A stretch of 59,969 nucleotides of DNA, counting the filler, from Sphacelaria rigidula (Eukaryota), in the NCBI GenBank assembly GCA_964200075.2. It is 4 parts of 4 records of this genome, joined end to end, with 100 filler letters (N's around TTAATTAATTAA, not from the genome) between each part and the next. Parts side by side here need not be neighbours in the genome. Positions count along the whole stretch, not along the records: positions 45,057 to 59,969 come from CAXNAA020001991.1; 3 more parts are not named here. One strand, 5' to 3'. The position numbers and the translations under genes were made by a program. The notes beneath the pieces are model-generated. The model worked only from the letters and a program-made list of their open reading frames with translations. It was not told where the DNA came from and did not search any database. Of the stretch, positions 2,881 to 59,969 are shown piece after piece. How positions within the stretch are numbered: position 1 is the first letter of the stretch; each line of letters begins with the position of its first letter.

Positions 2881-2882
2881 GT

Positions 2883-6867: not shown

Positions 6868-6937
<70 letters not shown>

Positions 6938-20626: not shown

Positions 20627-20649
20627 CATTTCTTACACCTCTTCCGGCG

Positions 20650-28870: not shown

Positions 28871-28871
28871 C

Positions 28872-35666: not shown

Positions 35667-35856
35667 ACATTGTTCCCTGCAGCGGTCTTACATCGTCAAC
35701 AGCAGTAATTCTAACAGATACTGTACACAAACAACTGCCTGGGGTGATAGCTGGCAACAGCTTCTGTGGAAGGTAGAAACATCCACCGCAAAACGTCTGT
35801 TGCCAGCAACAGGTATTGGTGGCCGCGATTCAGACCCTATTGTGACGAGCAATAGT

Positions 35857-37616: not shown

Positions 37617-39240
37617 GACATTACTTACGACGATACGTCGACGGATGATCCTGTCGATTAGTAGCCATTACCGACGACAATAATGGCGTCTATTACAGCC
37701 GATTCTATTGCTATTGCAAAATCTGTTGTCTATTGTTCACGGCATGAGTTTACTCGTGCCCTTCGGTTACCGTCTGAGACCACATAAACAGAACGGCAAG
37801 GTCATATCAAAGTATTGTCTACCCGTTACCACAGAGCGCAGATATAATGGTTCACTTGTCTTCACGTGTTTCCGCGCAATAACCTTCGGTGACAAGCATG
37901 CGCAGGAAATATTTAACCTCCACATACGTGTAGTATTTTAAGACAGAGCAATGCTTTTATCGAGTGATGTCTGCGACGACAGAGTTCATACGCGAACTAG
38001 CTTTACAGCGGAGGATAACAAAGCACTTCCTCACTTAAAGCATAGTACCACTGCAAGCAGCAGCTGCTCGAGTACTGTATGAATGGCGCTTCTCTCACCT
38101 CGTGATCGCTGGTTATTTCGAGGTCGTCGGCGCGTGGCGGGAGTGACTTTCCCCACCATGCATTCATGTGTGTTGTAGATTATACCACACACAATTTGTT
38201 GTGTATCATCATGTACGGCGGAATTATACCCAATTAATTCGAGTACGAAGGGCGCCCGCAGTCAGCAAGCGTTCAGCAGGTGTTGAAGACCAAGTCATTA
38301 CTTTCAGGCGCACACTAGTTGCACTTGTATGCGAAATTTGTTTCTCAAGGTTGGCCAACTTGGTGAAGCCATCAACCAAGGCGGTGGAAAGTGCCACCGC
38401 GTATAGCAGAGTGCGTCAAATAGCTGCGGCACATTCCACCATTGGTTCATTCAAAAAACAAGATTGAGGGGTACCCACGGGCCACAATTTCACCGTGGGT
38501 ATACAGTAAAATACATCGTAGCGTATTGTCCACGATTTCCCCCGGCCACTCCTTATCCGTGCCACATCCGGCGACGGCTGTACGACGGTATTCATTCTCC
38601 TCACGCATCTGTACCGACATCAAATGCAGATAGCTTACGCGCAACAAGTGCGCTAGGCAGTGTGCTCAGACGCCGAAGGGATACGGGCGATTTTCGGATC
38701 ATGAGCAGATTATTCCGGAACAGTTGCCTGGACTACATGTGTGCCGCGAATTTGACGACATGGCAGCTGAGCAGTCTTCGAACTTGCTCCTCGTATGTCG
38801 ATCGTTGCTATTCCTTTTCCGGCTGCTTTTCATCCTGTTGCCCAGTTTGAACTGTGTTTTTTGCGCGAATTTTCTACTTTTCAGCCGAAAAATGAGTATC
38901 AAATGCTTAGGACAACTTTCCTTGACTGCGAGCGCCCCCTGTATCGACAAAACATACGGTTCTAAGATACGCACTTACACGACAAACAAAACCCACCACC
39001 ACCACAGGTGTATGAAGGAACGGGTGGGAGGTTCTTCCCATCAGCAGGAGAAATCGCGTGACAAATTCACTTCAACCGCATGTTTGCCTTGTTCGTGGCC
39101 AGCGAACGATTATGGATCAGCATTTTTCGCGTAGATGTTTTCTTCTTGCCTTCCTCTGCAGGCTGTTTGATTTATGGGTATGGGTGGTATGCTCCTTGCA
39201 CTCTGTGACCACGGGTTCGAGAGATCGAGCTAATGTGACC

Positions 39241-39342
39241 AACATAATAACAAGAATAGTGATAATAACAATAACAATAACAATAATGATAATGATAATG
39301 GTGATAATAATAATAATGATGATAAGAATGATAATAATATTG

Positions 39343-39375
<33 letters not shown>

Positions 39376-39459
39376 GTAATAGTAATAATAATAGTAATAG
39401 TAATAATAATAGTAATAATAATAATAATAATAGTGATGATGATAATGATAATAATAATT
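39241..39459. repeat. Imperfect (ATA)n microsatellite, probably the tail of a minus-strand LINE 3' end (39460-40090)
   Basis: The repeat is read directly; the LINE-tail origin is inferred. Confidence 0.85.
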
Positions 39460-40129
39460 TAGGAACCAATGTCCTCATACCTGGGAGATGGGGAGGGTTA
39501 GACAGTACCATCAGGACGCACTGAGGGTAAGTAACTCGTCCAAAGTACGCCGTCGACCGGACACAGTGGAGAGTCCTCGTACATGTACTCCATAAATACA
39601 CAGAGTTTTCGGGATTTGGGGTGGCCGGGGAACTCACGAGTGCATTTGTCAGCTTAATGTTTTTTCTTCTTCAAACGACTAACCTTCAAACAGGCTTGAT
39701 GCTCGTGATGAACCTTCGTATTTCGGAAGGATGAGGGGACACACGGGTACCGACTGCGGAGAGCAGTAGTCAGCGTCGACCACGTTCAAGGCACACCGTT
39801 GTAGCGTGAGTTGAACTAACTTTGCCTAAACTCCTGCTCCTACTTCTACGTCTACTCCTACTCCAAGTCCTACTCGTCCCCGCCGTCCTCGTCTTCCTCC
39901 TTCTCCTACCAATGCTTCTCCCACTAGACACCTTCGGGAACCTATGGTAAATACATTTTCCCCGTATATATGATCTATAGATCTGAGAGGAACATGCGGT
40001 ACACGTCTCACAACCTCATGGCTGTACGATTAGTTTGACAGTGATGGATGCCGGTTTTCGTCCGCACAACACCTGAATAAACCCTCCTGCCGAAATGGAT
40101 GGAGCGATGTTCGAACCTCGCTGTACAGT

Positions 40130-40335
40130 TCTTCTTCTCGCCACACATTCAATCTTGACCCCTACCCTTCCTCGGGACGAGTCCATGATCGTGAGTGATC
40201 AACCCATCTCTCCCCCGATACACGCGTTGCTATCTGGTATCGCGGATAGGATCGGCAATGCCGCACCGGGTCGGCTGTCGTCAGACATTCTTCGATACTC
40301 AAGCCCTTCGGCTTTCAACGTTGGAAATTAGATAC
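40130..40335 (-). mobile_element. SINE family 2 fragment
   Basis: gacgagtcc..gatcaaccc..tctcccc..tcgcggat..ccgcaccg is the reverse complement of 36040-36135. Confidence 0.6.
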
Positions 40336-40915
40336 CTATTGAAGAAAAACCCAAGTGCGTCTGCCGGGATTTGAAATCACTTTCGGCGAGCCATGGTGCA
40401 CCCTGCGAGCGATACAAACTGGAAGGCAAGGAATGTGGATCGCACATGCCTAAGAACGATACTCGCCGACTGGAATCGCACATTCTGCCCCCGACCGCAG
40501 CCCGACTAGGGACGGTTGAGTCAAGGTAAGTTGACCCCAACGAACGACCAAACGACACAACCGCGCGTAGGAGAGAGTGTCTTTACATTGTGTCAGTGGT
40601 GTTGTAAGACTCGAACTAGCCACTGGGCCATGCCGATAGTGTGGGACTTCAGGCTCAACCCTGCCGCTGCTGAGTGACATTGCTCAACCCTGCAGCCGAA
40701 GAGTTTTACCCGCACCCGGAGCACTATAACGGAAAAAACGTCGATGAAGATGAGACATGTGTGAGTAAGTGCCAGATTCGGCAGACTGGAAACTAGCGGC
40801 CGACGCCGTCTGGGACGGCTGCACCCTTCCCGCGAGACTTAAAACGCAAGGCGAGTACCATGATCGGTTTGCCCAAGAAAAATCAGAAGATATAAGTTTG
40901 CGCGTAATATTAGAA

Positions 40916-41191
40916 GAGTGATGCTACGGTAGGGGTTGCACTTTTTAGCGAAAAGGTTTCTCGGGGCTACTCGGGGTGTTGGACGGGTCATTTTGTAAAT
41001 TGGCATAATTTTTTCTGAAAAAAGACCGACAATGATGCCAAGTCACGAAAAGGCCTCTGCGCGCAAAGACCATGTTTCCGAGAGTCCGGTCCCCAGAGAT
41101 TTGGGTTGCACAGTAAACCCCATACAATTGTGCTCCTACAAGGAAGAGAGCCTCAGAAACAAAAAGTGCAACCCCTACCGGAGCATTGCTC
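40916..41191. mobile_element. Sola-like MITE (276 bp)
   Basis: ~30-bp TIR gag(t/c)(g/a)atgct(a/c)cggtaggggttgcacttttt; TSD agaa. Confidence 0.88.
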
Positions 41192-41439
41192 AGAAGGAGG
41201 AAAGTACCCAAAACGAGGGCAAAGCAAAGTGCAAGGTGCGTAGATGTAGATAAGGCTAGAGCTAGGTCGCGTATAGGAGCTCAAAGTGACGACCCACAAC
41301 GTTTAAAACACGGCCCGTCACGAGAAAGGACGGGGCTGGTCGTGGTGAGGTGGTTCTGCGAAAGTGTCGAGCGGTGAGTTGTGACGCGTCGGACTCCAGG
41401 AGAGAAGGATACGAGGCCGAACCGAATTTGCTGCCGCAG

Positions 41440-44400
41440 AATACCGTGTATTCTGCTGCGGGGCGGAAGGGGGCACGGAAAGGGCTAGACAACATGGGGT
41501 TAGATTGGCGGTCGAGGTGTCGATCATCCATAAGGCGATATGGACTCAGGCGCTCATCAGCGAACGTCTCATTCCGACGACTTTCAACCCGGCAGGCAAG
41601 TCGAGCGCTCCCACGTTTGCAGTTGCCTATGCCCCTACAGACATATCAGAATCACGAGAAGGGAGATATATGTTCTGGACTGAGCTGAAGAGCATTGTGA
41701 ACCGAATTCCCAACAACTACCACCTACTACGTTTGATGGACGCTAACGCTAGGACTGAGGTAAGAATAGGAGAGGAGATCTGTAAAGTAGTTGAGGCGAA
41801 CGATCAGTACTCCCGAGCCAACGACATCATCCGGACCTCTTTGCTACAATTTGCGGGTGACAGCAGGATCACCCCGGTCGACACGTTTTTTCCACCCCCG
41901 AGGGAGACACTATGGCATGCATGATTATGAGTACATCCCGAGGGAGGCACGTCGCGTACATTCAACGGTATTGTGATTCATCCGAATTAACTACATCCTT
42001 ATACGGCAAGATCACCGCAGGCTTGTTTGCAATGCCGTTGTCCACCTGCAACCATCCAACGTACCGAACTCTGATCACAGCATCATGTGCGCCTCAGTGC
42101 GACGCCTTGGTCGCTTTGCACGCAACCAACCTTGGCGACCCTCACTCGGAGCAAATGTCAGGCGGGCAATAACATCTCACACCGGGATGATGCCACGGTA
42201 GGGATGCAACTTTCAGTTCAAAGGTTTTCGAAGCTGCGCAGTAATGCCCAGATATTTGCCATCAAGAGGCTCCTACAACTAAGAGCCAAAAAAGAAACAA
42301 AAGAGCACCCCTACCGTGGCATTGGTCGCCGACAGAGGTGAGCAACCCACCCAGCTCATCACCAGCGAGCTGAAGCGGGGTAGAACTGGTGATGCGGTCA
42401 GTGCATTCGCTATGACCTTCGCCAACATGCTCCTGATCGAGCCCGTTGACAAGGTGGTACTTTATCAGACCCGGAAGCCACGTATACCGGGGTCGTTCGA
42501 GGATACTGCCACCCGGGCGGAGTGCGAACAGGCGTGGGATCAGCGGAAAAATAGCGAGGTTGATAGCACCAATGGCACCGCGAGGAAATCCCGCGTGGTG
42601 CACCTTGCGAGCAGCGTGCAGACAACTCAAAGGGGTGCTCCAAGCTGGGGTAGGCGGGTACCTAGATTTGTGCACGAAGAATCGGAGGAGTATACCATCA
42701 TTGGGGACATGCGAGGAGGGTACAGACATCTGAAAGGAGTGTGGAGTCTGCCGGGACACGAAGTAGAGAGCGAGCAGTATGTCAAGGACGGCGACGGAAA
42801 CCTGCTGGGGGACAAGAGTTCAATTTGTAAGAGATGGGAGCGATACTCTCCATGTTGCTGAATTCCATATCCATGACTATCGACTGAGCCGCCATCGAGC
42901 ACATTGCGTACGATCGACAACGCTGTCACTCGCAGACCCGACAAACCCAACGGAAACTGAGAAGGCCCTGAAAGCTATGACTCACGGCAAAGCGACGGGT
43001 CCGGGTGGTCCACTGCTGAACCCCTCAAGCTGGGGTTGATAAGCTAGCCTTCGGCGATTCTGTATTTCACCGAATCATCGCTGCTGTTTGGACATTTGGC
43101 GAGAAGCCGCAGGAGTGGAAATACGATACGCCACTGTCAAAGTGTCACGCAAGAGGAAATGTACCGGGTGTGGTAACTACGCGGGCATCTCCCTCGTGGC
43201 ACATGCTGATGGAGTTCTTAAAGTCGTAGATGACAGAGGAGGCAGGGATCTTCCCGTAAGAATAGTGCGGGTCCCGACGCCAACGATCGACCACCGGCAT
43301 GATGTTCATGGTACGCCCACTACGGGAGTTGGGATGGACGAGAGCAATGCTCCGGTGGGGGTTGCACTTTTATTTTGGGGCTTTCCTTTTCGTAGGAGTA
43401 AAGATGCATAGGGCTTACTGTGAAACCTTGAACCTTTCCGGACCAGACTCCCAGAAACATGGTGTTTTCACGCAGGGGTTATTTTCTGAATCGGCACCAT
43501 TTTCATTCTTTTTCGAGTAAAAATGATGCCGACTCACAAAATGGCCCCTTCAAAACCCCGAACAGCCGCGAAAACCCTTGTAGCTACAAATAATGCAACC
43601 CCTGCCGTAGTATTACTCACGAGCAACGTCGCACTAAACGTGTTCATTATCGGCCTATAAAGACGTATTTTTTCATAGACCGCTCGCTCCTGTGGGAGGT
43701 GCTTGCTCGTTTCGGGATCCCGCCGCGGATGGTCAATATCATCCGTGTGTTTCACGATGGTATGCGATCTCGGGTACTGTTGGATGATGGCGAAGTACCA
43801 GCGCGGTTCCACGTCTGTTAGAGACTCACGAAAGGATGCGTTTCCTACCTTTTACTATTTAACATCTCCGATGCAGCCTTGGTCAACGTGAAGTTACAGC
43901 GGTTCGCGGCGGACCCAACCATCGTCTCGACTCAGTAGGTGTAGATGATGCGCCAAAAGATGGCAATCGTGACCTCCTCGAAGAGATGCGGGTGGAGGCG
44001 GTGAGGGGCGCGGTGTAGGGAATGGTATATGCGGGTGACGCCGGCATAGTGTCGAGGTCCCCAGACCCGGCTTGCTGGAGTGATGGCCACGATAGTGATG
44101 GTCAGCGTCGGAGAGCCAGACAGAGTCCATGCACCTTTCATCAGTACCCAGCTCCGTAGAGACTGCGTTGTGCATCAAGGCGGAAGGTTAACGACTACAG
44201 TAGACTTCTGAGTTTGTCAACCCAGGTGGTGCTGTCAGCACGGATGGAAAAATCTCCGTCGAAACCACCTCCCGCATCAGTGTCGTGTGGGTACGTCTCC
44301 GAAAGCATACTTCCCAACTCTACGGTCGGCACAACGCCCAGCTATCTCTGAAAATCGGGCTGCTGAACGAGGACGTGGTCGAAGCTATGCTGCACGGATG

Positions 44401-44820
44401 TGCTACGTGGGCGCTACGTCCTCCGAGAGTCTGCACGCTGCCCACCACCGGCTTTTACTGCGAGTGGTTGGATTCCGCAGGAAGGAGCGAACTGACCACA
44501 AGACTTTGTCGCTCGGAGATATGCTCGAGATGACCACTTGCGAACGTAGCAAGGTGGACATCTGTCGACGTCAACTCTGATTTGCGGGTGCCCTTGTCTG
44601 GTAGGACGAAATATGTCTTCCACAGCGCATCATGTTCTGATAATTAGCCGCATTAGGGCCCAAGGAGGCCCCCCGGTCCCCCAAACATTGGGGGAAGCGC
44701 CTCCAGGAAACCTACGTGCACTAGAGACTCTTCCACGCAAGGGAGAACGACATGAATGGTTCGTCCATGGTGTGGATGTCGGAGACGCATACGATTGAGG
44801 TTTTGATTGATTGATTGATT
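41440..44820 (+). mobile_element. Degenerate RTE-like LINE (APE endonuclease and RT), (GATT)n tail
   Basis: AVAYAPTD..FWTEL..LMDANART (APE); GKATGP, CGNYAGISLVAHA, LLFNI, GMVYAGDAGIVS (RT); VVEAMLHGCATW; gattgattgattgatt at 44805. The 5' region probably extends to ~40400. Confidence 0.88.
43342..43618. mobile_element. Sola-like MITE (277 bp) inserted in the RTE RT
   Basis: gagcaatgctccggtgggggttgcac / tgcaacccctgccgtagtattactc; TSD acga. Confidence 0.88.
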
Positions 44821-44956
44821 GTTGCACTTCAACTGACCCCCCCCAGGGATCCAGTCGTGTTTACATGATAGACGTTCTCGAGACAATACAAAACTAAAGC
44901 GCTCGCTGAAGAAGACAAATTATTATATTATTATATCCATCACATTAGCTCGATCT

Positions 44957-45056
44957 NNNNNNNNNNNNNNNNNNNNNNNNNNNNNNNNNNNNNNNNNNNN
45001 TTAATTAATTAANNNNNNNNNNNNNNNNNNNNNNNNNNNNNNNNNNNNNNNNNNNN
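44957..45056. other. Artificial contig spacer
   Basis: N44-TTAATTAATTAA-N44. Confidence 0.97.
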
Positions 45057-45189
45057 AATTATAACCGCTACATGTCCTAAAAATTTGGAGGTCAATAACC
45101 GAAATGTTGGGGTCCTACGGGGAAATCCAATTTCAGGGTATTTCGGCGATCCGCAATCAAAAGCACCATCCTCAACATAGATGATTGGC

Positions 45190-47465
45190 TGTTAGGTGCT
45201 CTTCCTCGTCTACTTTGCGTCTGAGCGTTCCTTTCCCCCCATATTTCCATAATGTCTCTTACTTTTGTCTTGTACCCCGCGCCTTCATCTATGCACGGTA
45301 TTTCGTCTTGGTTTCCTCCTGTCTATCTCCATACTTTCTCGACTTGTTTATTCCACCTTATTGCAGCCCGCCAAATCGTTTTTGTTTCCCATACATACAG
45401 CTTTATTCAATATAGTCGGCAACCTCTTTCTCCGTATGTTCTTGAAGCTGTATTCTCATCGCAATTTTCTCATGTCTCTGTTTCAAGTGAGTAAATTCTC
45501 AACTCTGCTCTCAATGCTGTATTACGCATCGTTTTCGAGCATCCAAGTATTTTCTGAGTACTGTTTCCAACTTCTTCACTAACATCGCGTTCCTCTCCCA
45601 TACTTTTACATGTTCCAGCTTCGGTACAATCACATTTATCAGGGTACATATCTTGATCCTAGCGTTTAGGTGCGGCTCTCTGAGGATCACGTCCATCCCG
45701 CCCATTTGTGCCTTACCCGTTTCTATTACCTTGCTCATGTGTGCATCCCGAGAACATTTTCTTGAGATTTTCACGCCTAGGTATGTATACTAGTCTACGA
45801 CCGGCAATTCATCTTCTCCCCACTTCCATTCGAACTCTATCGGATTTTTCCCATCTTCGTTACAGACAAGTACGGCGCATTTGTTAACGTTCACTTTCAC
45901 TCTCCATTACCTACGGTATTCTAGAGCCTTCTCTATCTGTTTCTGTAACCCTTCTGGTGTTCCTGAAATCCCCACGAGATCATCCGCGAACATCAAACCT
46001 GATATCACATCTTCACCCTCCTTGACCCCTTCCTTTGATGCTTCTATTGCTACTACCAAGTCATAAATAAATACCTTGAACAAAGTTTTTTTTTTCCTTG
46101 ATGGAAGGAGGAAACCCAACCCAACGCTTACCCCGCTGACGATCGCAAACGATCGCGGGCGAGTTCGTGTGCCGATTACCCGGAGGCTCGGCTAGACCGC
46201 CTTGCGGCGGTTATGTGGGGAAGGCGCCTCGAGCGATGGCTCAAGGCAGTGTGGGGGATGCTCCCACAAAACTTCCCTGTCAACTAGTAGATGATAACGT
46301 ACATCCTTGTGCAACTCCTTGAAAATATCAAAATAGTTCGATACTTTCCCGTCTAGCATCAAAGCACTTTTAGCACATTCTGTCATCTTCACCATTCTCC
46401 CATCTTTCCTCTAATCCCAGCTCCCCACCGCCTTGTCCACAATCCATTTCTCCATACTGTGGCATAGGTGTTTTGCGCATCCAAGAAGAAAAAGTACGTT
46501 TTCAACCCGGTGTATTTCTCACCCTGAAAAATCTTACCGAGTGTGTACACATGGTCGGCGCAACTACGGTTTGGCCTGAATCCTGCTTGTCTCTCGCTGA
46601 TCTTCTCTTCATTTTCTAGCACCGTTTTTACTCAATCGTTCAGAGCCTTACATAATGTTTTCCCTACCGTACTCAGTGGCGTCATCCCTCTATAGGTTCC
46701 CGGCTGAGCCTTGTCTCCTTTTTTAAAAAGATTGACGACTTCTCCTTCCCTCCACCTCTTGGGTGTGTACTCGTTTTCCCATATCCAGTTATGCAGCATA
46801 ACCATCATGGTAATCATTCCCTCTCCCCCGTGCTTCAGATGTTCATTCACTGTTTCATCTGCCCCTGCTGCCTTTCTGTTCTTGAGTTTAGCTACGCACT
46901 CCTTTCTTTCATCTCTGGTAAATTCTCTGCATTTCTTTCGAGCCTCTATCCTCCTGTTTTGACGTCTGTACATTTGCCTCTGTCCATGCGTTGATATTTC
47001 TGTCAAATTTGCATGTCGAACTCCGTGGTCGTTTTTGGCGTTCCTAGTTTACGGTAGTGCTCGACTAGCACTTCTCTTTCCCCCTTCGAACTGCTGATCA
47101 TTTTATCGTTCTGTGCCCAGTGTGTGGTTTTCCCGTTATCTATCTTCCCTGCCTGGTCTCTCGCTATCCCTTTTAGCCCTGCCTACATTTGTTTCATCCC
47201 GCCATCGAAATCTTCATTTGTTTTTATCCCTACGTCTTCCCATAGTCCCTTCTTTTTCTGCTGTACCATATTTCTTACTTCCTTTCGAGCTTTAGTATAC
47301 TCCTCTCCCATCCTGCCCTAGTTTTACTCGATATCTATCCCGCTTGGGCCTCTCTCCTTACTCGTATAGCATCTTTCACTTCCTCATCCCCCTATTTTAC
47401 TGCTCTGTTGCATACTATCAGTTTTTTCCCTGTGATTTCTCTCGCTGTAACCTTGACCAAATGCT
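45190..47465 (-). mobile_element. LINE reverse transcriptase pseudogene (clade uncertain)
   Basis: KLKNRKAAGAD, KKGDKAQPGTYRG, ERQAGFRPNRSCADHVYTL, VWRNGLW, GVAQGCTLS, GLMFADDLVG, YTYLG; several frameshifts. Confidence 0.92.
46086..46285 (-). mobile_element. 200-nt structured, poly(A)-tailed insertion in the LINE RT
   Basis: Splits QGCTLSST|LFKVF; A10 tail on the minus strand; five or more hairpins. Confidence 0.8.
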
Positions 47466-50447
47466 TCCATCCTTTTAACACCGGGGGGGGGGGGGGGGGG
47501 GCCGCGGGTTATGCAGGGGGGGGGGGGGTGTGGACAACGGCGCGGGAAAAAATGCCCCCCCCGTCGGCAAGCGGNNNNNNNNNNTTGGTAGACAGGAGGG
47601 CGTAGAGGGAGGAGGGGGGGGAGGGAGGGGGGGGGGAGGGGAGAAAGGGGGTACCCATGGTCATGCATGGGGTTGGCGTCTGTTGACAACGACGCTGTAA
47701 AACATGCCACTCACTGCGGAAACTAGGCAACGAGATTATCGGTTGTGGTGTCTCGCTTGCGTTGTTTTGCGGTAACCATGATGGTAGTCGAGTTAAATCA
47801 TGTTGTGCGGCGTGGGAAAATCCCAACCCCGCACAAAGGGGATGCTCGTCCTACGTGATGCTTAAATGGTGAGACACCCATGAGGCGGGGTGTAAGCCAT
47901 GCTTGTGTCTAGAAGTAGCGATACCAAAATACCAAGCAACTCATTGTAGACTGTCATCCAAATGCAAGATGATCGGTGCACTTCGGGCCGAATAATGTTA
48001 GCAGGCTACAGCTCACCCTTCATGCGAATCGCCGAACACACCACGGCGCTTCGCGCTTGGTGAATGAGTGCGAGCCTGGTCCGGGGGAAACCCGGCGTAC
48101 TTCATCCCGCGTTCGTAGGGATGCAAGTTCAATGGTCTTTTGACTTTGGAATGCATGATGATGAGTACACCGTCCGACTCCCTCCGCTGCTTTTCCCGGA
48201 TTCTGGGTTGTATTTTCAAAGGCCATGAAGACTGAAGTAGTGCACGATCTCAAGAATGATCTTGAAATGGTGTTTGTCAGGCGCTTCGTACGTCATGGCT
48301 TCGAACTCCCAGCGGTCCTCTTCAGAGGTACGACTCATGTTTCGAAGTAAACGGATTGTCTTGGATAAAGAAGCCCGGCTGTTCATAGTGTAGATTATAC
48401 GTGTTTTTATTTTTGTCTCTTCATCCATTGCAAATGTTCTCGCATCGTAGACGAATGTGGCGAGGATCGGGAACTGCTCCTCGCCATCTTACGGGAGATA
48501 CTGCACGAGACCGGTGTCCGTTTGCACGATACTGATGATGTTGATAGCACAAATGAAGCGGCCACTGTACCTAAACTCCTATTCCCCTCGCCCGCGCGTT
48601 TACCGTACGTTTGGGATTTGGCACCGGGAGCAAGCGCCATTTCGCTCTCTCTACTTGCCAACGGCTGCACTGTACAATGGAATGTTTTGGGATTCGACTG
48701 CCAATGGGAGCCAGCGCCAGTCGACACAACACCAAATCCTGTCTCAACTGTCCAGCTATCGCTTCCTGATGGCACTGCCTTCCGCTCTCACCTTCAACGT
48801 GGGCAAAATCGAACACCCCGTTCAACTTCCCTGTTGCCTTGCGATAACTTCTGGGAGACCCTTCCATCGCGAAGGTATGGTTAGTGATACCTGTTTTCAA
48901 ACTTGAAAATACAAGTGCGGTGCGTGTGCGTTACTCATGCAGTCTGCCGATTCCGCTCATCTCCAGGTCGGTGTAAGTATGAATTCTGAGGCTTCTCTTT
49001 TGAAGCGAGACTATGGTGTCCACGTCGCGGACACCGTGGACGTGAAGACCAACGGAAGAGAGTGTTGGAGGGAGACACCGTCTCATTCGTTGGCGGGCAT
49101 GGTGTGTGCCTTGATCGGGGAAGACCTCCCTGAAGATCCGAGTATCCGCTTCTCTCGATGGAGCGGCAATTCCCTCACGAGGAAAGAGGTGGGATTTGGG
49201 AAACTCTGCGCGTTGCTTCTGCGTCCGCAACGATTTTCTGTAGTGCCCTCCTCATCACTGCATAGTTGTTTCCGTGGTGCTCTTCAAATTGCTGTTTTGT
49301 TCGTGTTTTCATGATGAACTACCCCCGTCTTACGATCACGGGTGCAGTATGCGTGCCTAGACGCGTACGCGTCCGTGGTCGTTTACCAGGACATCGAGAG
49401 ACTGGAAGATCCCACACGCACCCACGCACTGACAACGCTGCCGGTTTGGACAAAGGTGTGAGTATTGAATATTTTTGTATCAGGTGCGCCGAAGCTGTTT
49501 TCTTACGCCGTTCAATCATGTATGATGTGCATCACGATCGCTCGCAAGAGAAACTGCTATCACGCCCCAAATTTGTGTGTTGTATTCTGCTGTCTGAATA
49601 GGTGCGTCTCTACAGCAACAACCACGCCAAACGTGTTGGTCTTGGGAAGGTGTAGAATGGCGTGACTGCTCCTGAAGCTCTGCGCCGGTGGCGTCCTAGA
49701 CCGTGACAACGGTTGAAGGGGGTTTTTGTAGTCAAATTGAGTGAGACGCCCGTATCTGCTGCGTTCATCCCGCACAAGATGGCACGTTCCGTCTCCGGTG
49801 TGAATTGTACGACGATGAAACACTTCTTCGAGAGCGATGGCGACAGTGTTGTTCTGCCAATGTTCGCCTAGTAAGGGGTTGGCACAACATCCTCCGACCC
49901 CGGCACCTTCAGTACCTGAGAGTACAAGTGTCGTCTACGATGATGACGCCGAGTTCTTCGCTTTTGATCCACCTTGTCGTGTCGCGCGCTCGCCAGGTAA
50001 GGTCTTGCCCCCTCCTGTGACAATGTTGTGCTGAATGGTGGAACCCCCTGAATTTTGGGCACTTGGCGAACCATGCAAACTAAATTTGTTTGCATGGTTC
50101 GCCTTGTAGATGACGAGGACTTTGATGAGGACGGAGAGGACAGCGATGAGTATGATGACTGCGACGTCAGCCTCAGGAGCCGTGCTAGTGTCATACGAGC
50201 CGTTGACAAGAGCAGTGGTGATATCGACAATGGCCAAGATGCGAATGTTGCGAAGGTAGCAGGCGACTTTTTAGAGCGAGTATCGATGTTGTCCATGAAG
50301 GCTATTTCCTACAAACGCCAATCGTCGGTGTACTGCTACTGTGTTGGTTGTATTCATCCAATTTCCGCGGGAGAGGTGGTGCATGCTCAAGGTTCGCCTG
50401 AACACCTTTCACGAGCTTCAGCGTCGATCACGCCTGCTGAAGAAGAC

Positions 50448-52174
50448 CACACCCTGGACGATACAATATGTTTTCAATACTGTATATATTAGTCGATCAT
50501 ACTGGAATTTTACGATTTATTGCCGGCGTAATATATATTGGTACGCTTGGACTGCACACGTGTTGCGCGCCCAATATATATTGATGTCATAAAACTGCAT
50601 ACATCTTGCCCGCCCAATATATATGTACACACGCATATATATATATATATATATTGGTACCGTGGGGTTGAGCACATATTGTCCCATCAATATATATTTG
50701 GGCAGTGTGAGCGACGGCATGTTGCACGACCAATATATATTAGGGTCGCATTGGTGAGAACATATTGACCGGTCAATATATATTGGGTCTGCGTGGGTGC
50801 CAATGTACTGGCCGGTCAATATAAATCGGACATTATTAAGTATGGTGTCAATTCGAAGAAAGATCAGACGCGGTGGATGCCGGAGCCCGTGCAGATTGGG
50901 AATAGCTTTGAAGGGGGGCGCAGAAAAACGCATGCATCGCTACGAAGAGTTGTCAATTCGTTTGATGTATATATATATATATATATACATATACATACTG
51001 GTCAGAAAATATGGTGGAAGAAGAAGCGGCACGGTATATATGCCTTCTGATACCTATCTGGCCACCGGTACGGGGCCGCCTATACGCTTCACGGCACGTA
51101 ATATATCTTCGGTAAACATCACGACGACAGAAAACGCGGGTCGATCTGTGTCTTTTGGTACCCCTGCGGTCACCGGTTCTGTGTTGCCTATACCCTGGCC
51201 AAACAATATGTTCCAATAGCATGCCGATACTTCGTATTAGAGACAGCGCAAATATTGTCCTTTCAATATACATTGTGTTAAAATGTCCTCGGAGACATTA
51301 AACCAATAACATGTATTTCTCGTGTCATGATCGTGAAGTAATGCATGACGATATATATATATATATATATATATATTGGACGTGCATTTGCTCCGGGAAC
51401 AACACGTTCAATATATATTTATATATATATATATTGTGCATCCCGACCGTGTATGTATTGAAGTGTCTATGTATCTAGTCGAAGCGATGCGCAAGATATT
51501 GTTGCCATAATATATATATTGAACGCAAACCATGCAGCAGTATCGTTTTCCCAATATATATTGCGCACGCTCATAGCATAGCAATTGTGCAGCCAATATA
51601 TATTGAACACGCTCGCGGAGGAATATATTAAGCGTTTTTGGCATGTGGTGATATATCTTTAAATGGCGCCCGCGAACATAGAACTGCCCACCATACGAAT
51701 TCGAATACATTTTCCAATTTACGTGTTGGAAATCAATATATATGCAGTGCCACACCAATTTGTACTGTGACCGTCCGTTCCCTCGTGTATTGTCCGCCCA
51801 ATATATATCAGACGCATTGACGTACGACGTATTGGGGCGGCATTATGTATTGGCACTACTTCAGGTGTCGAGTATATTGAATCGTCGATATATATCGACC
51901 TCGTGTGGCAGTGAGTGTATTACTTGACAAATATATATTGGCGTCTTACCTCACCAACATATTACTCGCCCAATATGTGTTGAGGTGGCGCGTGTCGTGA
52001 TATGTTGTTCGGTCGATATATATTGCATGTCGCGAGACTTGACATATTGATCGCAGAATATATATTGACCCTCTCTCGTGCCATCATACTGCTCGCCCAA
52101 TATATATTGACCACCCGACGCGTCCACGTATCGAGCGGGCAATAAATATTGAATATTGTATCGCCCAGGGTGTG
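50448..52174. mobile_element. 1727-bp non-autonomous DNA transposon, CACACCCTGG family
   Basis: TIR CACACCCTGG(A/G)CGATACAATAT with 21/22 identity; perfect 8-bp TSD aagaagac; CAATATATATTG palindromes every 42-43 bp. Confidence 0.93.
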
Positions 52175-53585
52175 AAGAAGACCTATGATGGCTGTAGGCC
52201 CTTCATGGCTTGATCGAGAGACGCTTGCATCATCGTAAATCTAGCCGAGTTCAAAGAGGCAAGTGTTGTTGACGTTACTTCTGCTGTTGGTCGCGTCAGT
52301 GACTTTTGTGAGGATTTCAACCTGTTGCATGAATGAGTCCCGGCGGTGTGCTGAAGCTTGCATCACAGCTAATACGCTTGTTCTGATCTCGTTTCCAACC
52401 CATATACCTATATACATATATATGTACATACGTATTTGTTCGGTATTGACAGGTCGACTTAGCGCTGGAAGCGCAAGGCATATAAAACCGGAGGAGGTGG
52501 TAGCTTACAAAGAAAGTCACTGGACGTTTTTAATGCGGAACTGCCGGTGGTTGGTGCCGAACCGGGAACGTTTGACGTAGCGTTTCGATTCAGTGATCGA
52601 TCATTTCCGGGAGGTGATCGACACGAAATTTAGAGAACCTCTCCTCCGGCCAAAAGCAATCGAGGCCATGAACCTCCTCCGCAACCAAATCGAAGCTGGC
52701 TGCCTCAGCGACCCTCACGGGGTGCCGCTGTACTACGCAACAGGCGAAAGCGCAGCGGGGATCACTACGCGTCGCTGTGTCGGGGGTACCAATAGCACTG
52801 AGTTTAGGTTCATGTCCAAGACATTCACGTAGATCAAAGCAACAGGCCATCCTACTGCCACTAAAATGCATAGTTTCTATGTTGGTCGTGTCGCGTTTGG
52901 CGGTGAAAAATACTTTTGTAGCATGGACCTGATAAGTGGACTTGTGTTTTTCGTTTCCTGTACATGCTTGCTCGTGAAAGGGTTGTCATCGTTATCTTCG
53001 CAAGTTACTATTAGCGTATTGCGCATCTCCCTCGCTGGCTCACTCCATGCTCCTTGAGTCCAACCACTGCTGTAATATCAAGATGGCTGTGAAGAACCGC
53101 GACGTACTGAAGGATGTTGAGAGATGTATCGACCAGTTCGATATTGAGATAAATATGCGCGAGACGTCCACTTGGTACCCGGACAGCCCCACATGTTTTC
53201 CGAGCGGGCCTCTGCACTTTATGCGGCAGGCACAGGTGAGAGGATTGGCCTCTCGAAGAGCATCCGGGATGGTGCGGCTGGCAGCGTACTAGCATATTTC
53301 CTTGGTGACCAACGGATGGTCGAGGACGTCGTGCCCCTGCCGACGCTCACGCACTCTGCGAAGCAATACGCACACATGATGTATGTTGGAATGCCTGAAA
53401 TACCCGTGCGCCGTGCAGTCGGGGGAAAGAAGTTCAAGACTGAGCTAAACGCGACCTTTTTCATTCAGGCGATGGGATGAGGAGACTCCCGCAGCACCAG
53501 AGTATCAACTTCGATAAGTGAGCAGTTCGTGTGTTGTGTGCTGTAGTCTCATTTATTATGGACGCTGGACTACACCGTTCGGCAT

Positions 53586-53878
53586 ATGTGGGCGCACCAG
53601 CCGTGGTCACACAGGAGGAAGGCCAACACAGGAGTTTTTCATTTATTGTTTTGTTTTAGTTCTCCATCTCCCTTCTGCGGTGCTTGCCATTATTTTTCGC
53701 GGGAGGAGTTCAGCAGTCCCTTTCCCTCGTCGACCATGAAGTCGAGTTTTGTGTCCCCACGACAAAGTCGCTCTCCACTGTTGGACATGGTGTGAGAAAA
53801 AATCACGGATCGCTCCGAAATTCGAACCCACGACCCAGCAGTTGGAAGGTTTCGAGGTCACCAACTGAGCCACCGGGG
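53586..53878 (-). mobile_element. tRNA-derived SINE family 1
   Basis: Aligns to 4725-5042 from end to end. Confidence 0.8.
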
Positions 53879-55569
53879 AGACCGCCCAGTAGAGTGGAAT
53901 AATCACTGTGAATCGATCGTGTCTGGCCGGGCGGAGTGGGAAGTCATCTATCAGAAAACCTCCAAACAACTCTAGTTGTACTACGAACAACTTGGGCAAG
54001 ACGCCAGTGTACGATGTAAACTATTCGTCGAACGCATGCTAAATTGCGGAGTACTGTACCGGAACCTGGCCGGAAGGGGGCGTTTGCTGGTTTAGTCGGT
54101 AGCGTAGCACCCGCTGCTTTTCCGCGGAGTCATTCTGAGGCAGGCATTGACGGTGGTGGGGAAGGGGGTGCCGTAGGCGGTGCAGGCCTATCGGCTGGGA
54201 ACGATGTAGTGATGGGCAATGTTGGGAGTGGCGGGGATACAGAGATTAACTCCGAACTCTCGCCCAAGAAGTCCAAGGGCCCACCTCGAGCCCCACAACA
54301 GTGCCGTACGTGTGGCAACCGCACACAACGCGGCGGTTACAAGCAATTGCAAGCTACACCGCGAGGAAAAGGGGCGATGCTGCAATGCAATGTACAGCTA
54401 CAAAAGCGTCGCTCTGGATCCTGTAGATATGGGAAATGGAGATGCCGTGGGAGAGAACGGGCGTGGTCTCGCTTTGATTGTGAAAAATGCACAACAGATG
54501 ACTCCTGATTGTTGTGAAATATTCAGGCTCGTGTTTAAGTGGTACATTGGGTCTCTGGTGCACTGAAAATAATAAAGCAGCAATCGCTGTCAGAAGCGAA
54601 AGAAGTGCTTAGACCGCTTCGTCTTGTTCCAATGTTTGATTGGTTGACGTAAAACTGCTGCGTGTTACGTACTTTTGCCGCGCCAGTTTCCTAGCTTACC
54701 TGCTTACACCGACTTTGTCGAAACCGCCGGGTCATCGTGCAAAGAACCATGTCCCAAACGCACAAAACTGGGTGGAAATGGAAATTAATCTCGAAGGGAA
54801 ACATCAAAGTTTGTCAAATTATCGGCTCAGGTCGCATGCAACGGTGGGAGACACAAGTCCCTCAATATATCTTTTGAAAACGTTTTTCTACAGGGAAAAA
54901 ATATTCCGCGCTTCGCGCGAATAATTTACTTCATTACAAAATCATCCCCATATATGGGGTCTGTGCCGTTTTATCTGTTCAGCTAGCCTCTACATTACCT
55001 TCTATTTCTCGTATTTCTGCGCCCCTTCGTTGTGCTCAGACTCCAATTTTTGTGGGGACGTTGTTTTTTGTTTGGCCATTGGGTCCTCATTGTTCTTGTA
55101 TTTTCGGCCATAATTTTCTGGGCATTCTGGTTTACTTCTCTTCGCCTCTAATCTCCGGCGCTTGCTGAGCGGCTTTTTTTCAAATTCCAGCACAAAACTG
55201 AGGAAAGAGGGGAGAGACGTGGAAGTAACATCAGGGGGGAAACACCTTCCCTATATTGAGAAAGAAGAACAAAGAGCAGAGGGCAGGGTCTGGCCCCGCA
55301 GAAATGGGCTCAGAAAACAAAAGTACTTGAAAAAAAGGTCCCGGGGGGGGGGGAATTGGAAATATAAAAAAAACAAATGCGACGAAAAAAAACTTTTCTA
55401 GGCCCCAATTAATATGTGTGGGCTTTCGGGACTGAAAAACCGACGGAGCAAACACCTGCTGAATTCGAAGTTTTCCGCCAATAATCGGTCAACATTTGAC
55501 CGCCGCCTTTTGCCATCTCTTCAGGTCGCGAACGGGCGAACAATGCAAATGCACATCCCGGTCATGTTG

Positions 55570-55830
55570 AAATGATAGGAGCGCCAGCGTCCCCGATCAC
55601 TACCTCTGGTCCTTTATGGGATGCAATGATAGGACACTGCGTATGGCCCTCGATAGGATGCAAGGGTAGGAGCGCGAGCGTCCCCCGACACTATCGGTGG
55701 TCTTGCGGCCCTGTGGTCCTGTGATCCTGTGATCCTCCTTGGGATGCAAGGGTAGGAGCCCTAGCATCGCCGGACACTGTGTCTGCTCCTTGTTTGGATG
55801 CAAGGGTCAGGAACAAGCCGCGAGTTCCCG
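55570..55830. repeat. Short degenerate repeats with core ggatgcaagggtaggagc
   Basis: About four copies, at 55619, 55656, 55742 and 55796. Confidence 0.7.
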
Positions 55831-56349
55831 CGGGCACTGTCTGTGGCCCTTAGGCGGGCAAAAGGGGGCGGAACGGCGGGCGAAAGGGGGCCGAACGGCG
55901 CGCCGGTGGCCAGGGCGTGGTGAGTGACGGAAAATTCTCGAAGTTGTTCATTGGGAGATCGTCGCTGTCGACGGCGGGAGTCTGGGGTCTCTCTGCTCCG
56001 GACGGCATGATGTACGCACACGTCTTTCAGATCATCGCAGAGAGCCCAGAAGACGCCGCGGATATTTCGTGGCGCCTACTGGTGGTGAGCCATTGCGCTG
56101 TGATCAAACGCGTGACTCCTTTAGGAAATATAAATATCTCTCTTTTAAAAAACACGAGGCAGGAATTGAAAATCACGTCGCACCCCAGCATGTCGACTCC
56201 CTTGTGTGTTTGTCGTTGATGTTTCCGTGCCCTCCACACCACTTACGTTCCCCGATATGATGAGTATTTGTGCAGTCCCGATTCTCGCGAGTATTTTAGT
56301 TTCTCGTCGCGTGGGTATCTTCGCAAGTTCTTATTTCGTGCGTAGTCTG

Positions 56350-56670
56350 CACACCCTGTGTAATTACAATAGTGGATAGTTGTTTCTCAAACAAGTAACT
56401 GTTCACACAAACTCTAAAACCGTCACAGCAACTAGTTGTTGCCAAATAGCTAACTGTTCACAATCGTGCGCAGCTATTTTTAGGGGAGGTTTGTTCAGAA
56501 AGAAGCAAACAGTCGTTTATTGCAAACATCGAATTGGCCAAAGAGGCGTCTATTAGTTCAGCCGCTCTTTTAGGCTCACGGAGGAACAGTCAAATAGTCA
56601 GCCGCCTTTTCATTATTTCAGTCGCTTTTTGAGGGTCACGGAGGAACAGTTGAATAGTCAGCCCCGAGCG
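56350..56670 (+). mobile_element. Probable left end of another CACACCCTG-type element
   Basis: cacaccctgtg followed by aactgttcaca and tagtcagcc sub-repeats; no partner end found. Confidence 0.4.
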
Positions 56671-56989
56671 TTCACTTTGCGGGAAAGACCACGGATAGTC
56701 AAAATAAGGAGACGCAAATCAGCGTAGGTTGGAGACACAAAAGGTGGACAGAGAGAGCATAGAAGGAGTTGGGTCAGTTCGACAGGGGCCAACAAGTCTT
56801 ATCGATTAGGTGTAAAGGAGGCGGGGCTGCGCAGGGGGCCAGCTTCCGGGCGTGGCGCGAGGGCATCTACGCGCTTGAAAAGGCGGAAGGAGGCGGGGCT
56901 GCGCACTGGGCCAGCTTCCTGGCGTGGTGCTATCACATATACCGGTATGTCTGGTCACTGTGGTATATCTGTGCGCACTGTGAAACAGG

Positions 56990-58750
56990 CTGCCAGCTAT
57001 CGGGAAGCAGCTACTGTCGAAAGTAAAGTTGCACGACTTTCTGGCTCCATCGCAGACATCTGTGTATTGCCGTTCCTGGGCCATCCCAGAGCTGTCGAGT
57101 TTGGTCGAAGTGCAGAAAACCTACACTCATGCTAAATATTTCTCGCTCAATCGCACACAGGCGTGTATTGCCGTTTCTGGGCCATCCCGGAGGTGTCGAG
57201 GTTTGTCGAAGTGCAGAAATCTATGCTCGTGCAAGGGGAAGCAACTACTTTCGGAAGTAAAGCTGCACGGTTTGATGGCTCAATCGCACACGTCTGTGCA
57301 TTGCCGATTCCGGATCATCCCGGAGCTGTCGAGGTTGTTCGAAGCGCAGAAAACCTACTCTCATGTTGAATGTTTTCTGACTCACTCACACACTGGTGTG
57401 TGTATTGCCGCTCTGGGCCATCCCGGAGTTGTCGAGTTTTATCGAAGTGCAGAAACCTATGCTCGTGCTGAACCAATATCTCCAGGACATCCGAGAGGTT
57501 GACGTCTGATCAGTTCGCGTTGCACACGTCAATAGCGTGTCTGCACATACGCTACTCGACCCGGGCTGCCGATTTCGGGTTGCAGCAATACAATGAGCTC
57601 CAACACATTTCGACAGGCTTGTTACTCAATTGCACGTGTGGTTGCCGTTTCGATTACCTATCGGAGCTGTCGAGTCGTCGTCGAAGTGCAGAAGCCTGTG
57701 TGGCGAAAAAACAAAATATATGCTGAACCATCCTCTCACGGAATTTCGTGGGAGGTTGCCGTCTGGTCAGCAGCGTTGCACATATGCACGCTCCTTGACC
57801 GGGCTGTCGGGAATTTCCGAGTTGCAGCAAGCAGAAAGCCCCAAAATTCAGCAGGCTTCTGGCTCGATTGTCATGTGCAATTGCCGTTTCGATTGTATAC
57901 CGGAACTGTTGAGTCATCTTCGAAGTGCAGAAGTCTGCGGGCCAAATGCCTATGCTGAACCAACCTCCTACGGAAATCCACGGGAGGTTGCCCCCTGGTC
58001 AATTAGCGGATGGTGCAAACGCTTCTTGATTCAGAGTGCCGAAATACTTCGGGAGGCATCATATGTATATATGTATATATATATCAGTTAAAACTTTGAA
58101 TCAATCGTACCCAGAGGTGGTCGCCGTTGCGATTGTAGTGCAACTGTCGAGTTCTGTTTTTCTTACAAGTACAGAAGCCTACGAACGCCGCTGAATCAAC
58201 ATCATACGCTGTTGCCGTTTCATCCCGGATGTTCGATTACTTACCGGCGCTGTCAGTCGTCTTCGAAGTGCAGAAACCTGTGTAAAAGCATATATATATA
58301 TATGCTGACATCTATATCTATATATATGCTGGTCCAAATCTCTCACGGAAATCCACGGGAGGTTGCCGTCTAGTCAGTAGCGGTGCACGTGTTTTCGCTC
58401 CGTGGCCCGGGCTGACGAAAACTTTTCGAGTTGCAGCAAACAATATGTTCAATGTGTGTATATATATCTATATATCAGCACGTTTTCTGCCTCACCTGCC
58501 CTGTGTACTAGCCGCTTCCATTGTATATCGATCCCACGGATATCCACGGGGAGTTGCCCTCTAGTCAATCAGCGGATGGTCAAGACGCTTCTTGATCCAG
58601 AGTGCCGAAAGACGTCGGGAATCAGCCAAATAGATATCAGTCGAAACTTTGACTGTCTATGGGAACGGTCGAGTATAATTTTCTTCGACGTACAAAAGCC
58701 TACGTACGCCGCTAAATCAACATCATAGGATGTTGCCGTTTTCATTATGG
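56990..58750. repeat. Degenerate satellite-like array (~100-120-bp units grading into longer units)
   Basis: tgtattgccgtt..ccatcccggagctgtcgag..tcgaagtgcagaaacct recurs at ~57060, 57165, 57300, 57400, 57640, 57880 and 58240. Confidence 0.85.
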
Positions 58751-59204
58751 ACGCTTGGTGTGTCCGCGATGTAGAGCGTGTGTGTGATCGTCGGTCAAAT
58801 ATCGAATCCGTCGGCACAAGTGTTCTCTGTTTTATACATAATATATATATGTATATATTTTCCCGCGGGGGAGGGCATGACGGAAATGGCGTGATCGGCA
58901 AAAAGCCATCGATCCAAACGCCGGCGAGCGAAAAACACACACACACACACACACACACACAACAATGACACATCTCGACAGCTGATGCCTCCAGCTTGCG
59001 ATAGGAAAACGAGTCTTGTCTACGGGGCTACTGTCCAAACTATCCACGAAAGTTTGACGATGCGTTTCCAACTCGGCGTGATGCTCGCATGTGTTTGAAA
59101 CCCGAACACCAGTGGCCGCCGCTCGTTGATATTCGTCGCTAAACTTTTGTTTATCCCATATTGACCCATATCCGCATGACCGCCTTATTGTTTCTCTACA
59201 TTAG

Positions 59205-59966
59205 ATGCCTGCGGCGACGAGGTCATCGACTGAGGGCATTCCACGGAGGCATGGCCGCGGGGGCGCCCGTACTATATGGCGCGCGCCCGGTAGATCGGGG
59301 TCGGGGCGTGCACCACCCAGGGCGCGGTCGGCCGCACCTCTACGCGAGGGCGCTGCGTTGTTGCGGGCACACTGCCGCAAATGGCCTGCCAAGATGTTGG
59401 AACCGGAGGTATGCGCCATGATGGAGTCCCTCGTTGATGATGACCTGGGTCGGTGGTCTTCGAGCCTGTTTACTAGCGCCGTCGTATTCCAGCGGCAGCA
59501 CCCAACGCCTCCAAATATCGAGGACATGCCTCCGGTGGTGACGCCGCAGTGGACGTTCCTGCGCAACTTTATTGATAGCGGGGGACTTCGGGGCATCCGC
59601 ATCCGCACCTCTTCCCTACTGTCGCCGACCAAGCGTTCCCGCTCCGGAAATAACCAAATTCGTGACCGACACCGCTTCGTGGAGGCGAAGGAAGGAGTAT
59701 GCTGTCGCCGGAACTGCCCATGGGAGCACAACAAGAAAGCAAACCGTCGATCCAGCAACGGGGGCGACGGTCCTCGAGCTAGCGGCGGGGGAGGCGGCGG
59801 CGGTGGCAATGGTCGCGTCGATGGCATTGGTCGCGCCGGTGGCGGCGGCTTGGAGACCGGGGGAACCAACAACCGCCGCAGCAACCAGAGCGCCGGGGGC
59901 GGCACTGGTGGACGCGGTAATGGCGGTGGGGGCGGGGGCGGCGGCGGTGGTGGGGGCCGCAACTAG
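59205..59966 (+). CDS. Possible exon or ORF with a degenerate CCCH zinc finger and Gly-rich tail (retroelement gag-like, or last exon of a gene)
   Basis: Open for 253 codons after a ttctctacattag acceptor-like site; HRFVEAKEGVCCRRNCPWEH lacks the first Cys. Confidence 0.4.
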   Translation: MPAATRSSTEGIPRRHGRGGARTIWRAPGRSGSGRAPPRARSAAPLREGAALLRAHCRKWPAKMLEPEVCAMMESLVDDDLGRWSSSLFTSAVVFQRQHPTPPNIEDMPPVVTPQWTFLRNFIDSGGLRGIRIRTSSLLSPTKRSRSGNNQIRDRHRFVEAKEGVCCRRNCPWEHNKKANRRSSNGGDGPRASGGGGGGGGNGRVDGIGRAGGGGLETGGTNNRRSNQSAGGGTGGRGNGGGGGGGGGGGGRN

Positions 59967-59969
59967 GGG

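Follow-up and report, generated by a model that had tools for sequence, protein, structure and literature searches.

Multiple short subterminal repeats near both ends bind the transposase in Ac/Ds and Hermes, the tips of which read CAGGG or CAGAG; for hAT elements, the tip consensus YARNG and the target consensus nTnnnnAn are tendencies and not strict requirements. Here we describe a family of transposons with terminal inverted repeats (TIRs) in a stretch of 59,969 nucleotides (filler included; hereafter the window) from the genome of the brown alga Sphacelaria rigidula (GCA_964200075.2), with a focus on one member, E5, which occupies positions 50448–52174 and interrupts a transposase gene. 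Like Ac/Ds and Hermes, the family has an 8-bp target-site duplication (TSD), short TIRs and non-autonomous derivatives, which in Ac/Ds and Hermes are internally deleted; unlike them, it has CACAC tips, its subterminal sites are strictly phased at 42–43 bp over 300–500 bp, and these sites differ among subfamilies while the tips are common. CAC-initial termini are likewise known from CACTA/EnSpm and Transib, and arrays of subterminal repeats occur in CACTA elements as well. Transib, however, has a TSD of 5 bp, in contrast to the 8 bp found here. Ectocarpus EnSpm families with CAC tips also differ from the family, having 2-bp TSDs (PMC12477816).

The closest described system is also from Ectocarpus. 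In the curated table for this alga (PMC12477816), hAT-2_Ec32 (Repbase hAT-2_ESi) is an autonomous element of 8.9 kb with CACAC-GTGTG termini and 21-bp TIRs, with hAT-7_DR as its best blastp match and a TSD given as "assumed to be 8 bp"; 92 copies are annotated, including one intact copy with no visible TSD. It is the only entry of that table with CACAC-GTGTG termini, the remaining entries with 8-bp TSDs being hAT-1 with its non-autonomous partner (TTGGC tips) and the giant KDZ elements. The window family shares with hAT-2_Ec32 a brown-alga host, CACAC...GTGTG ends and a TIR of ~21 bp (here 22 bp, one of them mismatched), and the 8-bp TSD that is expected for hAT-2_Ec32 is observed in the present family. 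In contrast to the 8.9-kb autonomous element, the elements described here are non-coding, range from 0.14 to 2.8 kb, and are very abundant in the case of class B. We assign the family, with a probability of about 0.7, to the hAT superfamily and to the lineage represented among curated Ectocarpus elements by hAT-2_Ec32 / hAT-2_ESi; the enzyme that moves it would be a hAT transposase. Enzymes of this type, encoded by autonomous hAT members, combine a BED finger, an RNase-H DDE domain interrupted by an insertion domain, and the C-terminal hAT dimerisation domain (PF05699).

Five elements with common termini and 8-bp duplications

The window consists of four contigs (1–14920, 15021–29940, 30041–44956 and 45057–59969), joined by spacers of the form N44-TTAATTAATTAA-N44 at 14921–15020, 29941–30040 and 44957–45056. 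The members of the family, whose end type can also be written CACACCCTGGAC, and the parts of E5 are the following.

2930–3065, unstranded: E1, a 136-bp miniature inverted-repeat transposable element (MITE), 77% identical to E4 when inverted; TSD 6/8, in simple repeat
18817–20626, unstranded: E2, 1,810 bp, class A, with 43-bp arrays of CTATCGATAG / CAATAGAT; TSD CATTCCTT / CATTTCTT
19876–19892, minus strand: internal pseudo-terminus TATACCCTGGACGATAA in E2, with homologous blocks at 36472–36488 (minus) in E3 and at 192–208 (minus) in the metagenome locus L048
20649–21112, unstranded: solo right-end fragment of class A, 464 bp, whose terminus is a perfect CCAGGGTGTG, located 22 bp past E2
34966–37746, unstranded: E3, 2,781 bp, class A, with degenerate ends; TSD AGCTTACT / AGTTTACT
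35529–35666, unstranded: E4, a 138-bp MITE nested in E3; TSD ATATTGTT / ACATTGTT
50448–52174, unstranded: E5, a 1,727-bp non-autonomous TIR element, class B
50440–50447, unstranded: left TSD copy of E5, AAGAAGAC, matching 8/8 at length 8 and 3/9 at length 9
52175–52182, unstranded: right TSD copy of E5, AAGAAGAC, a perfect 8-bp duplication
50448–50469, plus strand: left TIR of E5, CACACCCTGGACGATACAATAT, agreeing at 21/22 positions with the right end in reverse complement
52153–52174, minus strand: right TIR of E5, 22 bp, reverse complement CACACCCTGGGCGATACAATAT
50500–50830, unstranded: left subterminal array of E5, 43-bp period, each unit a palindrome CAATATATATTG plus an ATATTG half-site
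51900–52155, unstranded: right subterminal array of E5, 42-bp period, with CAATATATATTG and ATATTG as in the left array

E5 begins with CACACCCTGG and finishes with CCAGGGTGTG, and a 16–17-bp terminus, CACACCCTGGACAATAG, is common to E5 and to four elements on the other three contigs. At up to one mismatch, CACACCCTGG matches the window 15 times where 3.83 matches are expected, a count reached by none of 100 shuffles; the 17-mer CACACCCTGGACAATAG, at up to four mismatches, gave 14 window matches where 30 shuffles averaged 1.0. A text search of ~8.4 million papers found no occurrence of the 15-base terminus CACACCCTGGACAAT. The 8-bp flanks are identical at 8/8 positions in E5, at 7/8 each in E2, E3 and E4, and at 6/8 in E1; of all flank lengths from 2 to 12, 8 alone gave the best match in four of the five elements. 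Random pairs of 8-mers match at 7/8 or better with a frequency of 0.00045. Because E1 sits within a TTG/CTG simple repeat, its flank match is uninformative alone. The initial annotation had named these five elements on four contigs, with common ends and 8-bp TSDs; all five are present at those positions, and the duplications stand for E2–E5 (7/8 to 8/8), while that of E1, at only 6/8, is weak alone.

The same annotation spoke of three size or sequence classes, and our analysis revealed three sequence classes that have little in common beyond the terminus: two MITEs of ~137 bp (E1 and E4), class A (E2, E3 and the solo fragment) and class B (E5). The family consists of genuine TIR transposons, falls into several sequence classes and has 8-bp TSDs. 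It shows two features of hAT elements, an 8-bp TSD and short TIRs (~10–25 bp). Two of the insertions can be compared with an uninterrupted counterpart. E2 holds a single intact ATATTGCT where its homologue E3 holds the nested E4, and E4 is a real insertion because E2 shows the empty site at the matching point. When E5 and one TSD copy were removed in silico, the junction aligned without gaps to four of four homologous proteins of the interrupted gene (P0001, P0002, P0004 and P0006), and E5 is therefore a real insertion as well. This bears out the earlier proposal that it had entered an exon just past the DxxH motif and that the frame is restored once E5 and one TSD are taken out. E5 is almost certainly a non-autonomous cut-and-paste DNA transposon. 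A Pfam scan of its 12 internal open reading frames (ORFs) of at least 60 aa gave no match, and the 42 such ORFs of E2, E3 and E5 gave none either (0/42).

The solo fragment at 20649–21112 is 89.9% identical to the right end of E2 (20170–20626); it resembles the "tandemly repeated ends" of some Ectocarpus giant transposons, or may be a fractured neighbouring copy. The segment directly to the right of its end (21113–21285) is 81.5% identical to 46295–46465 and contains fragments of a reverse transcriptase of the type without long terminal repeats (non-LTR); pieces of a non-LTR retrotransposon reverse transcriptase also occupy 45900–47050 on the minus strand. The pseudo-terminus, (C)TTATACCCTGGAyrATA, is oriented like the nearer real end, lies 0.7–1.0 kb inside it, and is kept in class A and in L048. 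It is read through in several predicted protein fragments, which have SYTLDNTL-like tails (P0022, P0023 and P0032).

Subterminal arrays and copy number

Both ends of every long member carry arrays with a strict 42–43-bp period. This periodicity was found in eight of nine tested regions, including the metagenome locus L048, with the middle of E5 as the exception; autocorrelation peaks were 0.40–0.60 against a background of ~0.26, with harmonics at ~85 and ~128. For the left array of E5, the peak was at lag 43 (0.45 vs background 0.26), and Tandem Repeats Finder reported a period of 43; for the right array, autocorrelation was 0.40 at lag 42. The class-B motif (CAATATATATTG, up to one mismatch) matches the window 17 times against 0.10 expected, with 14 of the 17 matches inside E5. 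The class-A motif, CTATCGATAG + CAATAGAT, has 25 window matches against 1.63 expected, and all but one of them (24/25) lie in E2, its adjoining fragment, and E3. The outer 10–11 bases of the TIR are common to class A and class B, and its inner part is the half-site of the respective class (...GGACAATAGA in class A, ...GATACAATAT in class B).

This division suggests a conserved tip for cleavage, as against subfamily-specific binding sites that would be phased on one helix face. A transposase supplied in trans would bind the subterminal repeats phased at 42–43 bp, where the putative binding half-site, which recurs in the inner TIR, is CAATAT in the class-B subfamily and CAATAG in class A. The transposase would then pair both ends and cut at the common CACACCCTGGA tips, and reinsertion through an 8-bp staggered cut would leave the 8-bp duplication. 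The phased repeats are in this scheme candidate binding sites for the transposase, and the cleavage chemistry is likewise putative. A 44-bp satellite in two metagenome contigs of one sample (L072, 1–660; L068, 2410–2613) has units that each begin with CACACCCTGGACAATAA, 16/17 identical to the transposon tip, and its period is near 42–43 bp; the likeness may be due to chance, or this may be a satellite of another organism that derives from a transposon.

Abundance was assessed in public sequencing runs with the same organism label and in an algae metagenome, by aligning their Logan contigs to a 3.5-kb stretch comprising E5 and its flanks. Contigs of X1, X3 and X4 bridge both E5 junctions with 0–3 differences, so that the insertion is real in the data of these three runs, and among the matches listed there was no junction skipping the entire E5. 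No RNA run stood among those listed. X1 gave 3,740 contig pieces at ≥90% identity, 379 of them at ≥99%, and the summed depth over E5 was ~100–1,000 times that over the flanks. At least class B is present in high copy number. The consensus of loose ends at the 5' tip of the family is CACACCCTGGACAATACAATATG, so that the consensus tips of class B and the tip of class A agree over 16 bases.

Probable assignment to hAT and rival lineages

To find relatives of the family, metagenome contigs were scanned with the 17-mer CACACCCTGGACAATAG, which gave 36 loci. One of these, L048, is a true relative, L068 and L072 are the 44-bp satellite, and the other 33 showed neither periodicity nor motif enrichment. 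A scan of viral contigs with CACACCCTGGRCRATA gave 47 single matches at chance level, and a convincing second end was found in none. The exact 17-bp terminus is present in L048, together with 42-bp arrays of TATCGATAG / CAATAGG and the pseudo-terminus block of E2 and E3 (CTTATACCCTGGAyrATA...; 26/31 vs E2, counted by eye). Between the terminus with its arrays and the pseudo-terminus block lies an exon of 77 aa that stops at a GT donor. This exon has 32 relatives at E ≤0.001 among 1.84 billion representatives, nearly all of them exon-sized fragments. One relative, P0029 from Ectocarpus sp., has a CCHH motif (C-x5-C...H-x4-H, by eye) just upstream, and its neighbours in the protein atlas are zf-BED, ZBED1_RNase-like and Dimer_Tnp_hAT clusters. 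For the L048 exon alone, counting named feature neighbours only, the neighbours are DUF659 (0.85), DBD_Tnp_Hermes (0.84) and ZBED1_RNase-like (0.82), and among its structural neighbours 7 of 10 rows are hAT/BED clusters, with a TM of ~0.5. These links of the exon to hAT and BED proteins are leads only. The initial annotation had suggested that the elements may form a distinct TIR group, which is unlikely, as the Ectocarpus library already places in hAT an element that has CACAC-GTGTG termini and 21-bp TIRs, and as L048 points to hAT/BED.

Several results weigh against placing the family in hAT. The known match to hAT-2_ESi covers the first 5 bases and the TIR length only. The CACAC tips of the family do not fit the hAT consensus YARNG, and no pattern of T at position 2 with A at position 7 is seen in the five TSDs. 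Neither the L048 exon nor 13 relatives nor any of the 33 members of their alignment had a relevant Pfam match, and sequence and profile searches of PDB gave low-complexity noise only, with no hAT match. The AlphaFold model of P0029 (mean pLDDT 59.8) had no Foldseek match at E ≤0.001, and in a wide VIA-align search its best Z was 5.4, to generic helical proteins, with Hermes absent from the 50 matches listed. A profile word search for longer relatives of the L048 exon found none; compared with the six-frame translation of the window, the exon profile reached a best E of 2.1, and tblastn of the exon against the window gave no match. No autonomous copy was seen in the material searched. Furthermore, Ectocarpus KDZ elements also have 8-bp TSDs and terminal tandem repeats (PMC12477816). 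Curated hAT tips of brown algae, CACAC and TTGGC, also depart from the consensus (PMC12477816).

Among the alternatives to hAT, an undescribed superfamily or a very divergent BED-finger lineage outside hAT proper, which would be defined by CACAC tips, 8-bp TSDs and subterminal arrays phased at 42–43 bp, has several points in its favour: the coding remnant in L048 went unrecognized by Pfam and by PDB sequence and fold comparisons, the 15-mer CACACCCTGGACAAT was not found in the literature searched, and the tips are unlike the consensus usual for hAT. An 8-bp TSD with a ~21-bp TIR is nevertheless standard for hAT, and all named atlas neighbours of the L048 exon, as well as most of those for the whole P0029, are hAT-associated. 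In addition, the Ectocarpus curators placed their CACAC-GTGTG element in hAT by its blastp match to hAT-7_DR (PMC12477816). We consider a separate lineage of this kind unlikely.

It is also quite unlikely that the elements are non-autonomous KDZ elements mobilised by the giant KDZ transposons that abound in brown algae. The 8-bp TSDs, the tandem subterminal arrays and the one tandemly repeated right end (20649–21112) would fit such an origin, and KDZ-1..5_Ec32 are described with an 8-bp TSD, terminal tandem repeats and occasionally duplicated ends (PMC12477816). The termini listed in that source, however, are asymmetric and begin with GGGG.. or CAGTA, in contrast to CACAC with a clean TIR. KDZ-1..5_Ec32 further differ from the family in their asymmetric or GGGG-rich termini, their giant size of 9–30 kb, and a transposase (PF18758) unrelated to BED/hAT, and the L048 exon and P0029 with its CCHH motif have hAT/BED neighbours and no KDZ neighbours.

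The interrupted Dada gene and other repeats

The gene that E5 interrupts and its partial relative have the following features.

48225–54505, plus strand: host gene, a degenerate Dada-superfamily transposase with an inserted DEDDy/WRN-like exonuclease, by tblastn of P0001, P0004 and P0006
50401–50412, plus strand: DxxH position, mutated to NTFH where homologues have LDIFH or LDPFH, by alignment
52211–52213, plus strand: in-frame stop, FMA*SRDAC vs FMARLRDAC in homologues
80–547, minus strand: second, partial copy of the Dada 5' part, cut off by the start of contig 1; it is 73.6% identical to 48171–47703 over 477 bp

In tblastn, P0001 maps along 48486–54505, mostly at 65–75% identity, with E5 at about residue 465. 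An 83-aa ORF downstream of E5 matched brown-alga proteins, the best matches being from Sphacelaria rigidula at 80% identity; further Ectocarpus relatives of this ORF carry PF01612 and bear the annotation "similar to Werner syndrome protein". P0001, P0004 and P0006 have PF01612 (3'-5' exonuclease) in Pfam and WRN exonuclease matches in PDB; a transposase family was found in none of the three by Pfam at E ≤1, where the only hit besides PF01612 was TruB-C_2 at chance level. The transposase had been called ISL3-like, a label that does not hold: in full-length relatives Pfam shows only PF01612, and P0004 matches Dada-1_ES.

Dada-1_ES of Ectocarpus was described by Kojima & Jurka (2013) as a Dada transposase bearing an exonuclease (PMC3706591). 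Dada elements of the Ectocarpus/Laccaria type have a DEDDy exonuclease placed after the second D and before DxxH, and those Dada elements with defined ends lack TIRs and carry inverted repeats only as short sub-terminal stretches, with 6–7-bp TSDs and sites in tRNA or snRNA genes (PMC3706591). P0004 is letter-identical to the exonuclease segment of Dada-1_ES printed in Fig. S1 of that paper, and for this reason we call the host gene Dada. Judged by its sequence, it is a transposase of the eukaryotic Dada superfamily, of a kind already published: like Dada-1_ES / Dada-1_Ec32, it has a DxxH DDE transposase with a DEDDy WRN-like 3'-5' exonuclease inserted before the motif, and it differs from them in being a pseudogene, with D changed to N, an in-frame stop and the E5 insertion. 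E5 lies in an exon between the DxxH and the catalytic E. Apart from E5, this copy is dead in its own right, as the D of DxxH is N and a stop lies in frame.

The initial annotation had raised the possibility that this exonuclease-transposase mobilises the CACACCCTGG elements, in which case E5 would have landed in its own driver. Within 60 kb, five CACAC elements stand alongside at least two copies of Dada, the ends of Dada-1_ES / Dada-1_Ec32 are undefined in the curated table, which gives "incomplete" and "TSD ?" (PMC12477816), and DxxH is common to Dada, hAT, P, MuDR and Kolobok, the last four of which make long TSDs (PMC3706591). This mobiliser is nevertheless very improbable, because characterised Dada elements have no TIRs, 6–7-bp TSDs and small-RNA genes as targets (PMC3706591). 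In addition, the two window copies of Dada cease to resemble each other at 47703 and 547, where a CACAC terminus is lacking (none was found at up to four mismatches in 47600–47800 or 450–650), tblastn of P0001, P0004 and P0006 matched nothing in E2, E3 and E5, and the coding remnant in L048 bears no relation to Dada proteins. The segment 55910–55919 was considered as a right end of Dada and rejected, the bases after it being unrelated. ARAGORN found no tRNA gene in the window and Rfam gave no match, so that the count of small-RNA genes is zero. More generally, a family outside hAT, driven by an undescribed transposase lineage or, at the extreme, by exonuclease-bearing Dada, is decidedly improbable; if Dada were the driver, the elements would be its first non-autonomous TIR partners, and insertion would occur without target specificity. 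Most likely, the E5 family, which we keep in hAT, and Dada are unrelated passengers of one genome.

A repeat of ~220–320 bp is found on three contigs (4725–5041, 13859–14083, 17781–17995 and 53584–53881), its copies being 74–80% identical, and one copy is intronic in the Dada gene. The repeat includes a stretch like tRNA, CCCGGTAGCTCAGTTGGTAACC..., and is possibly a tRNA-derived short interspersed nuclear element (SINE); ARAGORN and Rfam made no call on it.

Elsewhere in the window, Pfam was applied to 62 of the 97 ORFs of at least 110 aa (contigs 1–3 and the start of contig 4) and found only bromodomains on contig 1 together with sub-threshold noise, and 14 ORFs around the E5 insertion gave sub-threshold noise only. 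The bromodomain matches (best E 2.5e-15) belong to a multi-exon gene at 6473–11780 on the plus strand, which has interspersed low-complexity coding repeats rich in Gly and Glu. Long poly-G/poly-C runs at 31–97, 6783–6957, 18628–18670 and 47475–47650 abut a conserved GTACTCAT(T/C)TGTTGCTTG and adjoin N gaps and a contig start; they may represent a homopolymer-tailed repeat family or recurrent assembly breaks. At the end of contig 2, a pair of 91-bp inverted repeats (29276–29366 and 29850–29940), 93% complementary and 483 bp apart, adjoins two tandem 179-bp units (28872–29229, 93% identical), possibly a foldback or MITE-like structure. Contig 3 carries a pair of ~276-bp inverted repeats (40916–41191 and 43342–43618), 75% identical, around ~2.1 kb; their shared motif GAGCAATGCTCCGGTGGGGGTTGCAC recurs at 29110 and 42296, and the pair represents a further, unclassified TIR-like family. 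A cluster of ~41-bp and 124-bp repeats (CCAAAATTTGGGTAGATTGAGTACGACCTCAAATACTCTACCC...) at 33506–34781 comprises several imperfect direct copies.

Mobile elements of brown algae are thinly annotated, and the Ectocarpus library is the only manually curated one. E1–E5 add direct evidence of an 8-bp TSD for CACAC-tipped elements and reveal that such a family can be very abundant in a second brown alga, and the neighbouring "exonuclease-transposase" is relabelled as Dada. As knowledge of transposon biology is unchanged by these results, their value lies in annotation rather than in surprise. The phased, subfamily-specific subterminal arrays are the sole mildly unusual feature, and with its conserved tips and diverging, helically phased sites the family offers a natural system for separating the recognition of ends for cleavage from the binding of ends.

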